Positions 22,332 to 24,681 of a stretch of DNA of 64,000 nt are shown piece by piece; position 1 is the stretch's first letter; each line of letters starts with the position of its first letter. The notes beneath the pieces were generated by a model, which was not told the DNA's origin, did not search any database, and was given only the letters and a program-made list of their open reading frames with translations. Origin of the DNA: a virus. Lineage: Duplodnaviria; Heunggongvirae; Uroviricota; Caudoviricetes. The stretch is from the IMG/VR virus record IMGVR_UViG_3300012979_000001, positions 35,375-99,374 of that record, one strand, 5' to 3'. The position numbers were made by a program, and so were the translations under genes.

Positions 22332-23297
22332 ATGAAATGTACAGATTGTTTAGAAGAAATTGATGACAAAGAGTATTATAACAAAAGTTATGAAGGAGTT
22401 TGCAAAAAATGTAGACAAAGAATCTCTCAGATTAAATATGAGAACAAAAAATTTGGAACAAATAAAGAATATGTTCCTATAAGATTAAAAAATGGTAAAA
22501 GCGCACCAGTTAAAAAAGCTAGTTCAATAAACGAGAAAAAAATTACAAGTGATGATACAAAATTATATGGAAAAGACATTGAAGATAGAGTAAGTGCAGA
22601 TATAAAACAAATATTTGAAAAACAAAATATAATAATCAAAGATAATGATATGGTTCCATTAACTATGTTTATGGAAATGCTTGAAACATTATTAGATGTA
22701 AAAAATGGATATATGAATAATTATATTAAAGCAGAAGATTTATTTAATATGTTAGAAAGAGATTATCAACACTCTTTTGAAGATGCAAAAACCATTAAAG
22801 AAATGGACGAGAGAGGGAAAATGTTTAAATGTCTATTAGATAGACGTAGAAATGTAAAAAATATCAATGCCCAATACAATCAAATCTCAAGAGTAATATA
22901 TGAGATAATAGATAAAATGCCAGACATTTTAGACAAAGTTCATATTGCAAAAGAAAGACTACTTGATGTAGTAAAGAAACAAGATGAACACTATTATAAG
23001 GCAGAAGTATCAGAACTTGTTCAAGAAGAAGAATTTTGTAGAGGAACAAAAGCTCTTGGAAGATTTGGAATGAAAAAATATGATGTATCTGTTCCAGTAT
23101 TTAATTATGGAAATAATTGTACAGGAATTCCTTACGATTTCCATAGATTTGCATATGCAAACAATGAAATAGATGCAATCAACCAAGTAAAAGCATTTAT
23201 AGCAGAAAAGTTACCAAAATGTACATATAAACCAAATGACTTTATTGCAGTTGAGTTATATGAAGATATAACAACAACAGCGAAGGAGTGTCTTTGA
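22332..23297 (+). CDS. hypothetical protein, frame-0 part of a candidate +1 frameshift fusion
   Basis: ends CUU UGA preceded by AAGGAG-UGU (prfB-type shift site) at 23283-23298. Confidence 0.5.
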   Translation: MKCTDCLEEIDDKEYYNKSYEGVCKKCRQRISQIKYENKKFGTNKEYVPIRLKNGKSAPVKKASSINEKKITSDDTKLYGKDIEDRVSADIKQIFEKQNIIIKDNDMVPLTMFMEMLETLLDVKNGYMNNYIKAEDLFNMLERDYQHSFEDAKTIKEMDERGKMFKCLLDRRRNVKNINAQYNQISRVIYEIIDKMPDILDKVHIAKERLLDVVKKQDEHYYKAEVSELVQEEEFCRGTKALGRFGMKKYDVSVPVFNYGNNCTGIPYDFHRFAYANNEIDAINQVKAFIAEKLPKCTYKPNDFIAVELYEDITTTAKECL

Positions 23298-24681
23298 GCA
23301 ACAGAAGGATTTAAGTCCTTCACCTAAATCAGAAAAAACAGTTCAAGAAAAAGAAAAAATTGAACAAAAAATAGAGGTAAAACCAGAACCTGTTAAAATA
23401 GAAGAAAAGAAAGTGGAGCAACCAGCAAAAGAAATAGTTGCTCCCCAAAAAGAAGAAAAGAAACAGGAAGTAAAAGAAGTTAAAAAAGAAGAAAAGAAAG
23501 CTGAATCAATTCAAGAAGAACCAAAAGGGCTTAAACCAAAAAGAGTTGGATATTCTTTATTTACTGCAAGTGCTGTTATTAAAACAGCAAATGGAAAATT
23601 TTCAGTAACAAGAATTGTTGAAGAAAAAACAGAAAAAATGGTTAGAGCTGCTTTTGAAAAGGCTGTAAAAAATGATTTAGGTAAGGCAAGAAGTGTAACA
23701 AAATTTTATATGAAGCCATATGCTGTTGGAGATGAAAATATAACAGAAGAAATTATTGAAAAACCAGCTCCTGTGGTACAAAGAGAATTAACATTACAAG
23801 AAAAAGCATTAGAAGTACTTTGTACATCTCCTTATGTTCATTTATATAAAATGCCTACAAAGGGAAATAAACAACCAGCCTATTTAATAGGAAAAGATAA
23901 AGATGAGATTGTTGATATAATAAAAGAACATAGAGCTGAAGCTAGAAGAGAATTACAATCTGCATTTATGGAAGGAAATCAAGAAGTAGATGAAGAAGCA
24001 TATGAAAAAACAATAAGAGGTATTAGACAAATGTCTGGAACAGAAATTAAAAATGATAGAAGAGCAATAAAATCTATTTATGAGAGAACAGATGAATCAT
24101 TACAAAATACTATAAAAGACCACGAAGATTCATTATATAAAGACACTCATAAAGAAGAAATTGTAATGGAGAATTTCAAGAAAGCAGCAGAAAACGAAAG
24201 TTTACAATTATATGCAGTGTATCTTCGTGAATATAAAGAAGAAACAAAAACTCTAATTATATCTAATAATGAAGAAGTTGCACAATCTTTAGCAATGTAT
24301 AATGACACAATGGCAAATTTCCTTGAAGAACACAATTTGGGAAGACAAATTGACATTACTACAGATACTTACAACAATGTAGGATTAGAAGGTGTTGAGG
24401 GTGTTGAAAATATTGAAGATGGAATAAAACTATTTCTATCAAAAGATAATCTTTGCACACAAGCTTTCTGTGACCCAGAATTAACAATGGATAAATATAT
24501 TAGAGTTTTAGATACAATTAAAAAGACTTTAAAGATGACAAAGAAAGAAAAAAGTGCAGCACTTGAAGAAATATTAAAACTTAAAGATGTAGTTAATGGA
24601 AGAAGTATTATTTCTAGTGTTGCAAGAAAAAGATTTGGAGGAGTGGAAGATATTGAGAAACGAATTGTTGGTGCTATTTAG
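23296..24681 (+). CDS. Lys/Glu-rich protein, frame +1 continuation of ORF 22332 (no in-frame start or RBS of its own for 117 nt)
   Basis: frame 1 is open from 23272; first conventional start is GTG at 23413 with no RBS; composition continuous across 23296-23412. Confidence 0.45.
   Translation, partial: EQQKDLSPSPKSEKTVQEKEKIEQKIEVKPEPVKIEEKKVEQPAKEIVAPQKEEKKQEVKEVKKEEKKAESIQEEPKGLKPKRVGYSLFTASAVIKTANGKFSVTRIVEEKTEKMVRAAFEKAVKNDLGKARSVTKFYMKPYAVGDENITEEIIEKPAPVVQRELTLQEKALEVLCTSPYVHLYKMPTKGNKQPAYLIGKDKDEIVDIIKEHRAEARRELQSAFMEGNQEVDEEAYEKTIRGIRQMSGTEIKNDRRAIKSIYERTDESLQNTIKDHEDSLYKDTHKEEIVMENFKKAAENESLQLYAVYLREYKEETKTLIISNNEEVAQSLAMYNDTMANFLEEHNLGRQIDITTDTYNNVGLEGVEGVENIEDGIKLFLSKDNLCTQAFCDPELTMDKYIRVLDTIKKTLKMTKKEKSAALEEILKLKDVVNGRSIISSVARKRFGGVEDIEKRIVGAI

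Follow-up and report, generated by a model that had tools for sequence, protein, structure and literature searches.

A probable prfB-type programmed +1 frameshift site in a phage gene family that does not encode a release factor

A prfB-like cassette between two phage reading frames

In a 64-kb stretch of a Caudoviricetes genome (64,000 nucleotides, positions 35,375 to 99,374 of IMG/VR virus record IMGVR_UViG_3300012979_000001; hereafter the window), two open reading frames (ORFs), ORF1 and ORF2, meet at a site that resembles the frameshift cassette of prfB, the gene for release factor 2 (RF2). We conclude that ribosomes very probably undergo a genuine programmed +1 frameshift at this site, which would yield a 321-aa protein and a 782-aa isoform. 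This reading comes from sequence comparison, namely from conservation of the cassette, from a +1 frame that is open and looks coding, and from the lack of an alternative start. The device would most likely set the ratio of a short and a long isoform sharing their N-terminal 321 residues.

ORF1 runs in the zero frame from the ATG at 22332 to the TGA at 23295-23297 (22332..23297; plus strand, as are all features of the site) and encodes 321 aa, which would also be the stand-alone termination product. Its 3' end reads GCG AAG GAG TGT CTT TGA G. This end comprises a Shine-Dalgarno (SD)-like hexamer AAGGAG (23283..23288), a candidate 5' stimulator that ends 3 nt before the shift codon; the spacer codon TGT (Cys; 23289..23291), which would occupy the E site; the slippery tetranucleotide CTT_T (23292..23295) with the shift codon CTT at 23292-23294; and the zero-frame stop TGA followed by G (23295..23297), a putatively slow A-site codon that would give time for the slip. 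The +1 frame contains a TAA at 23269-23271 and is then open from 23272 to the TAG at 24679-24681, and its part of the predicted 782-aa fusion covers 461 codons plus the TAG (23296..24681). The first ATG, GTG or TTG of this frame is GTG 23413, about 117-118 nt past the shift point, and the ACCTGTTAAAATAGAAGAAAAGAAA preceding it holds no GGAG-type SD. The coordinates of the cassette, the long open frame without a ribosome-binding site at its first start, and a fusion of about 780 aa had all been given by the original prediction, made from the letters of the window, and we found them correct. A TTG at 23294 was considered as a start served by AAGGAG and was rejected, being in the wrong frame, opening a 6-codon ORF and being absent in relatives that carry TAA or TAG.

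With both strands of the 64 kb searched, the motif AGGWGNNNCTTTGA is found a single time; shuffled sequences predict 0.09 occurrences, and 9 of 100 shuffles contained at least one. Taken by itself, apart from placement and conservation, its occurrence is only suggestive. The site stands above chance because it coincides, in frame, with the final codons of ORF1 (321 codons), because 461 open codons follow in the +1 frame, and because its placement is conserved. We also compared the 26 pairs of adjacent or overlapping plus-strand ORFs in the window in which the second frame stays open through the stop of the first. In 25 of them, a start codon lies within −83 to +23 nt of that stop, many with an evident SD; only the ORF1/ORF2 junction has none in this interval. 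SD-like motifs lie upstream of about half of the window genes, indicating that the host ribosome uses SD pairing. CTT is not a rare codon in the window (187 of 1,218 Leu codons).

Conservation of the cassette in homologous loci

We examined 16 homologous loci from 16 different assemblies (L001-L015 and L018), with ORF1 45-98% identical; L003/L005 and L008/L009 are near-duplicates, which leaves 14 distinct relatives and, with the window, 15 distinct sequences. ORF2 diverges much faster than ORF1 (~31-96% identical), and a sequence search returned only five homologues of it. A comparison of homologous phages had been proposed as a check on the cassette. In 16/16 of these close loci, the pattern AGG[A/T]G TGT, followed by CTT, TCC or CCC and then by TGA, TAA or TAG, coincides precisely with the 3' end of ORF1 and has no second copy in the locus. 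Among the 15 distinct sequences, the SD-like element is AAGGAG in six, GAGGTG in five, AAGGTG in two, and CAGGTG and GAGGAG in one each. The TGT spacer is invariant (15/15), and the shift codon is CTT in 12, TCC in two (L006, L013) and CCC in one (L007). The stop is TAA in seven, TGA in six (the window, L001, L002, L004, L011 and L015) and TAG in two (L007; L008/L009), and the base after it is C in nine, including every TAA and TAG, G in three, T in two and A in one.

In a stop-anchored alignment, the AGG.GTGT columns and the T of the stop are invariant, and flanking columns are identical in 6-11 of the 15 sequences. A one-codon indel (K-E-C-L versus E-V-C-L in the protein, AAG GAG versus GAG GTG in the DNA) keeps the SD-like hexamer at its distance of 3 nt from the shift codon. 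Window genes seldom use CCC (6/408 Pro codons, 1.5%) or TCC (11/798 Ser codons, 1.4%), and a stop followed by C ends only 3/64 ordinary window genes; the use of these rare shift codons together with the C after every TAA or TAG cassette stop indicates selection for shiftiness.

The same frame structure could in principle stem from a sequencing or assembly indel in the TTT run or from a recently frameshifted pseudogene, since removing one T of CTTTGA would join the frames, and the run adjoins a stop at which gene callers give no warning. However, the structure recurs in 16 independent assemblies across the whole range of ORF1 identity with both ORFs intact, the TCC_T and CCC_T variants have no T run, and no fused, uninterrupted homologue was found among 1.84 billion protein representatives. 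The split is therefore a maintained state and not a recent mutation, and we regard an artefact or gene decay as extremely improbable.

Transcriptional slippage on the T run, or termination followed by reinitiation without a start codon, would also give a +1-frame product. Slippage requires long homopolymer runs, but the run here is only T3 and is missing in the TCC and CCC variants; as for reinitiation, no ATG, GTG or TTG of the +1 frame lies within reach of the SD-like element. These routes are thus very unlikely.

Coding potential and start codons of the +1 frame

Immediately past the site, the +1 frame shows 390-486 open codons in all loci whose contigs extend to the ORF2 stop (the L012 and L013 contigs end inside the open frame), and in relatives the third frame is closed after 12-39 codons. 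No upstream start is present in the +1 frame of nine of the 15 distinct sequences (the window, L006, L007, L010-L014 and L018), and the first downstream start in them lies at 10 nt (L012) or at 82-319 nt (the other eight). The ORF2 starts chosen by gene callers scatter from 41 nt before the ORF1 stop to 319 nt after it, showing that no ORF2 start is conserved. The public calls contain "intergenic" gaps of 280-320 nt (L006:5937-6252, L007:5961-6267, L013:3952-4228, L018:3958-4270), which are the open, coding-like beginning of the +1 frame; other contigs receive an overlapping ATG call.

To score this region, we used a codon-usage likelihood trained on the other genes of the window. The 39 start-less codons of the window gave a log-likelihood ratio of 14.4 nats in favour of the +1 frame, and each of the nine start-less stretches tested favoured this frame over the shifted ones, by 10-56 nats; in these stretches, 27-106 codons show coding-type usage. 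With a local stop frequency of 0.096 per codon, the chance of such an open stretch is 0.02 for the 39 codons of the window and 2e-5 to 9e-5 for the 93-106 codons of L006, L007 and L013.

These data bear on whether the two ORFs are separate genes, ORF1 ending normally and ORF2 starting alone, at GTG 23413 here and at an upstream ATG or another start in relatives; in that case, the conserved ...E(V)CL C-terminus would belong to the protein as such, and AAGGAG would be just two codons or the relic of a ribosome-binding site. ORF2 is indeed annotated as its own gene in every public contig, six loci have a +1-frame ATG 23-41 nt before the stop, and remote ORF1 homologues work as stand-alone proteins. 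Nevertheless, the start position is unconserved and up to 106 start-less, open and coding-looking codons would have to be explained; GTG 23413 lacks an SD, while all other window junctions have a start near the upstream stop; and the C-terminal tail of ORF1, which is disordered in the structural model (residues 312-321), tracks the cassette and not the fold (see below). Two separate genes are therefore improbable, and a programmed frameshift remains the preferred reading.

Proteins encoded by ORF1 and the fusion

The ORF1 protein has an N-terminal CxxC...CxxC zinc-ribbon-like motif, a helical middle and a small α/β C-terminal domain. In its AlphaFold2 model (predicted local distance difference test score, pLDDT, 72), residues 312-321 form a disordered tail, as expected of a linker encoded by a nucleotide signal. 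The +1-frame part would begin with a K/E/P-rich low-complexity linker, as judged by composition (+1 codons 1-76; 23296-23523), and continue with a folded α/β region of ~385 aa (23524-24678; AlphaFold2 pLDDT 75, predicted template modelling score 0.57). The proposal that a Lys/Glu-rich composition continues across the junction holds loosely: a K/E/P-rich stretch is present, but it lies downstream of the site.

Against Pfam and PHROGs, ORF1 and ORF2 matched no family beyond sub-threshold noise (FtrD-like, MuF_C, phrog_5987), and Foldseek searches of both AlphaFold2 models against the PDB gave no significant match; the +1 part thus has no significant family or fold match. The fusion contains no GGQ or SPF motif and no PCRF, RF-1 or other release-factor Pfam domain, in line with the original prediction that neither ORF is RF2-like. 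Foldseek matches of ORF1 to RF2 chains (E 0.3-2, template modelling score ~0.2) were set aside as helical-bundle noise that indicates no release-factor relationship, and the idea that ORF2 repeats the ORF1 C-terminal domain failed a profile-profile test (hhalign E 0.57).

In a collection of 5.8 billion proteins, ORF1 has 30 homologues of 181-330 aa, 28 of them full-length (311-330 aa) and two fragments, and an ORF1 profile found 67 proteins, including remote ones, among the 1.84 billion representatives, the longest having 377 aa. Many remote homologues end with KECL, KEYL, KDCL, KESL or KSCS on a variable tail of 5-20 residues, and others finish directly after the last β-strand, 5-20 residues earlier. 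The two remote loci read at the DNA level, L016 and L017, have neither the cassette nor a long +1 frame, and no ORF2 homologue lies within 3 kb of either; in L017, AAGGAG TAG ATATG is the ordinary SD and ATG of a 118-aa gene. Homologues without the cassette had been named beforehand as a finding that would speak against the frameshift, and these two are the only ones; as they also lack ORF2, they do not refute it. Instead, the absence of both elements in L016 and L017 suggests that ORF1 is an old stand-alone protein and ORF2 an extension reached only via the cassette, and, together with the earlier ends of the tail-less homologues, that the ...KE[CY]L tail tracks the cassette rather than the fold.

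About 20 remote ORF1 homologues (P0037-P0097) end with KECL, QECL, KEYL, KDCL, KESL, SGCL or KSCS, and a KEYL ending would read AAR GAR TAY CTN, with the E-site Tyr codon of Escherichia coli prfB. The cassette in the ORF1 family may be much older and wider than the 16 loci examined.

Searches of INPHARED by blastn and tblastn returned no relatives, and the ORF1 profile had no match in IMG/VR or the GTDB genomes. Single remote ORF1 homologues likewise matched nothing in IMG/VR, and a sub-alignment alone reached L016 and L017. A protein search with the whole fusion gave two matches, as it was swamped by low-complexity words.

The same 15-mer in prfB and in other viral genes

An exact-match scan for the window 15-mer, AAGGAGTGTCTTTGA, in one genome per bacterial species returned at least 120 loci, and at least 62 authentic prfB genes carry a cassette that is letter-identical to it. 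This identity is closer than the original prediction had proposed and, with the comparison of relatives, gives strong support to a prfB-type +1 site fusing both frames. At these prfB loci, the leader is open for ~20-55 codons (122 at most) and ends ...KECL with the 15-mer at its end, the +1 ORF is ~340 aa long with SPF and GGQ, and C follows the TGA in 60/62 of the loci listed. Among the matches listed (L075-L191), the prfB carriers include many metagenome-assembled genomes (MAGs) of Candidatus Gastranaerophilales/Melainabacteria and Clostridia, a Fusobacterium MAG and a Christensenella MAG. Annotation and domain continuity at these genes imply that ribosomes of low-GC anaerobes decode the signal of the window by a +1 shift. 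Several of the MAGs share the BRZ_ sample series with the relative L015, which may hint at the host range of these phages.

The identical 15-mer also occurs in prfB-like architecture in viral contigs, in three other settings: RNA ligase genes, release-factor-like genes and one ORF pair. First, an RNA ligase gene (Pfam PF09414, E 7e-15) is split in a prfB-like way in five IMG/VR contigs, always with CTTTGAC (plus strand: L032:10123-10831, L035:12265-12973, L043:9974-10754 and L057:7086-7803; minus strand: L051). The leader MEYPKINSLWKRHGWYFDEKEKKECL has 26 codons, ends with AAGGAGTGTCTTTGAC, and has its own SD and ATG in 3/5 loci; the +1 ORF encodes 209-212 aa with a KxDG motif and has no start codon for 82 nt. 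RNA ligase thus looks like a second non-release-factor phage gene family with the full prfB-type cassette.

Second, short release-factor-like viral genes (L038:1839-2475, plus strand; L053 4325-3563 and L070, minus strand) encode PCRF and RF-1 domains with GGQ but no domain 1. They carry the same 15-mer inside the PCRF domain (...EIRPGEGGDDAYRFAKECL*, the asterisk marking the stop), and the Pfam PCRF alignment runs across the +1 junction. In size, they resemble PrfH, for whose gene one study describes no frameshifting (PMC1586002). Third, L044 (4547-3389, minus strand) contains a 301-aa ORF ending ...KQSKECL with AAGGAGTGTCTTTGAA, followed by an 85-codon +1 ORF whose first start lies 31 nt downstream. 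This pair is unrelated to ORF1 and ORF2 by hidden Markov model, has no Pfam match, and may be another cassette user or a chance occurrence. The second cassette variant, GAGGTGTGTCTTTGA, revealed no further frameshift-like architecture in IMG/VR.

A recurrent stem-loop downstream of the stop

A 7-bp stem-loop, GAAGGAU-UUAA-GUCCUUC, is predicted at 23304..23321 (plus strand), starting 6 nt past the stop, and is a candidate 3' stimulator (z = −2.7 and −4.6 against shuffles). At 6-7 nt from the stop, L006, L007, L008, L013, L014 and L018 have a hairpin as well, and L008 differs from the others by one fully compensated pair and one G-U to A-U change. In L001, L003 and L004, a hairpin of 12-14 bp lies 20 nt downstream; three of its pairs are compensatory, and the one pair lost, in a single sequence, is that closing the loop. 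The hairpin could plausibly stimulate or modulate the shift. In an Rfam scan, nothing was found in 23150-23500.

In most relatives, the 5' arm of the hairpin is SD-like (GAGG, GAAGG) or the 3' arm is anti-SD-like (CCUC, CCUCC), with such sites at window 23304-23321, L001:4795-4824, L003:4984-5013 and L006:5944-5971. While the site is free of ribosomes, a downstream CCUCC could in principle also bind the SD-like element upstream.

Proposed mechanism and the identity of the stop codon

If the site works as described for prfB (PMC12421855), termination would compete with the slip once peptidyl-tRNA-Leu is on CUU in the P site and UGA is in the A site. RF2 acting at UGA would end the chain and release the 321-aa ORF1 protein. 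Base pairing between AAGGAG and the 16S rRNA anti-SD, only 3 nt upstream of the P-site codon, would promote the slip, in which tRNA-Leu moves from CUU to UUU while the A-site stop awaits its release factor, so that slow decoding of the stop would further promote it. GAG would then be read in the +1 frame, leading to the 782-aa fusion of ORF1, a flexible K/E/P-rich linker and a ~385-aa folded domain. The stem-loop 6 nt past the stop, lying at the mRNA entrance, possibly also promotes the slip. The occurrence and efficiency of the slip, the part played by the hairpin and a possible influence of release-factor level belong to the inferred side of this scheme.

The original prediction went further in tying expression of the gene to host RF2 level. 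If the cassette were specifically an RF2 sensor, the long isoform would be made in proportion to host RF2 shortage. The window, L001, L002, L004, L011 and L015 do use the RF2-specific UGA, the 15-mer equals that of real prfB cassettes, where RF2 level controls the shift (PMC12421855), and TGA is the rarest stop in the window, ending 4/64 genes. On the other hand, seven relatives use TAA and two the RF1-specific TAG at the same site, and TAG is absent from 8,164 prfB motifs (PMC12421855). Moreover, there is no feedback loop, as the product is not a release factor. RF2 specificity is thus not what selection maintains, and coupling to RF2 does not stand as the conserved purpose of the cassette; we consider a dedicated RF2 sensor unlikely. 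What selection appears to keep is a slow stop of any kind, and the efficiency of the shift at the UGA of the window should respond to RF2 activity.

Genomic setting

The window has ~22-35% GC, mostly 27-30%, and nearly all genes lie on the plus strand. It encodes a DnaB-like helicase, a DNA polymerase, a RecJ-like exonuclease, exonuclease V, RNA ligase, DNA ligase and a ClpP-like protease, and contains a cluster of 20 tRNA genes (27596-37668). Because of the replication genes, the 20 tRNAs and the length of the contigs of relatives (up to ~197 kb), the window is regarded as a piece of a large phage. ORF1 and ORF2 neighbour ClpP-like, bactofilin-like and radical-SAM genes and the tRNA cluster, which are not a structural module; this setting, and the lack of a family or fold match for either part, is what we found with regard to a virion role of the gene.

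The tRNA cluster has no tRNA-Leu for CUN and no tRNA-Pro, and includes Glu-UUC, Asn-GUU (two copies), Asp-GUC and Ser-GCU, which correspond to the first +1-frame codons across the family; among 20 tRNAs, this overlap may well be a coincidence.

In relatives, Macro, PARP-like and Thg1-like genes lie near ORF1 and ORF2. WGR-PARP-like and Thg1-like proteins are encoded a few genes downstream of ORF2 (L001:7704-9735, L006:8992-10194, L008:9108-10945); Macro-domain and ClpP-like proteins are encoded upstream. Together, these genes point to roles in ADP-ribosylation and RNA repair or anti-defence. Their counterparts in the window (25813-27467) had zero Pfam matches.

The DNA polymerase of the window (phrog_405) is itself encoded by two ORFs, 55754-57796 and 57744-59153, which overlap by 53 nt with the second in the +1 frame and cover profile positions 37-678 and 686-1082, respectively. 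The second ORF has an ATG at 57744 and no cassette-like motif is found at the stop of the first (TTC TAA TAA); recoding seems less likely here than a naturally split polymerase.

Discussion

Certain observations weigh against a programmed frameshift at the ORF1/ORF2 junction. The evidence for it is entirely comparative. The stop context of the window is TGA G and lacks the prfB-type C after the stop, which makes for weak termination. The upstream +1-frame ATG in 6/15 sequences makes independent initiation possible there. As we read the canonical 3' end of 16S rRNA, AAGGAG and GAGGTG would pair with the anti-SD in registers offset by 3 nt, and the "3-nt spacing" would therefore cover more than one strict geometry. 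The hairpin is absent in L015 and weak (4 bp) in L010 and L012. At last, the KPP[TA]IE (KPPTIE) and QPQQ motifs after the site were dropped as evidence of translation because they coincide with the hairpin arms.

The likeness to prfB lies in the SD-like element 3 nt before CUU, the slippery CUU_U, the in-frame stop in the A site and the +1 continuation. CUU-stop +1 sites in RECODE are all prfB genes (PMC10274946), and the stops of the 8,164 prfB motifs are TGA in 98.6% and TAA in 1.4%, with TAG never used (PMC12421855). The phage site nevertheless differs from prfB in several ways. First, its gene does not encode a release factor and hence there is no autoregulatory loop. Second, the prfB site lies at about codon 26 of a throw-away leader, whereas the phage site lies at codon 322, at the end of a conserved folded protein, so that the termination product is probably functional. 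Third, the phage family uses all three stops, including TAG, as well as the shift codons UCC and CCC. Lastly, the window has G rather than C after the stop, and a downstream hairpin recurs in the family.

Among phages, the SPP1 structural proteins gp17.1 and gp17.1* are described as arising from a +1 shift at CCC_UAA with an isoform ratio of 3:1 and an extension of 87 aa (PMC6316719), and the tsh genes of the Listeria phages PSA, A118 and A500 from one at CCC_UGA (PMC5009743). There, as proposed here, a fraction of ribosomes shifts +1 on the last sense codon and produces a C-terminally extended isoform in a fixed proportion, and L007 with its CCC_UAG comes close to these sites. The position on the last sense codon of a complete ORF is likewise shared, ORF1 being conserved and stand-alone in remote relatives. 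The SPP1 and Listeria sites consist of a rare CCC and a stop, with no SD-like stimulator mentioned in the portions of these reports consulted (PMC6316719, PMC5009743), while most members of the present family have CUU and an SD-like element. Their extensions are short and on tail or capsid proteins, in contrast to the 461 aa added here to a non-structural-looking protein in an early/metabolic region.

Antizyme shifts +1 at UCC_UGA with a 3' pseudoknot stimulator (PMC10274946), comparable to the UCC beside the stop in L006 and L013 (UCC_UAA) and to the downstream RNA structure; antizyme is, however, eukaryotic and polyamine-sensing and has no SD element, and the shared point is the chemistry of the shift site only. 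The −1 shifts of dnaX, of IS elements and of lambda G/GT (PMC3711429, PMC5009743) also combine an upstream SD with a downstream stem-loop and give two isoforms with a common N-terminus; they differ in direction, in their heptanucleotide sites and in an SD located further upstream.

New here are a prfB cassette in a non-release-factor phage family, its position at the end of a functional ORF, the free choice of stop, the alternative shift codons and the recurrent 3' hairpin. With the other viral users of the 15-mer in mind, phages might have repeatedly taken up the host prfB cassette as a portable switch that reads termination capacity (RF2, or RF1 at UAG) and adjusts isoforms; we put this forward as a tentative and rather doubtful proposal. 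If the shift did track release-factor availability, these genes would form a class of sensors, derived from a regulatory element of the host, with which phages read the translation state of the cell.

ORF2 would be mis-annotated in every public contig of the family, with arbitrary starts or ~300-nt gaps, and gene finders for phage metagenomes should test for the cassette. The SD-stimulated, stop-dependent +1 shift on CUU_U has hitherto been treated as a one-gene mechanism, and the present phage gene family would keep the cassette for another end, the addition of a 461-residue extension to a protein. The family would thereby constitute a natural mutagenesis series that varies stop identity and shift codon as prfB never does, and in which AGG.G, the 3-nt UGU spacer and a pyrimidine-rich shift codon followed by U appear as the indispensable parts of the cassette, the other parts being free to change.

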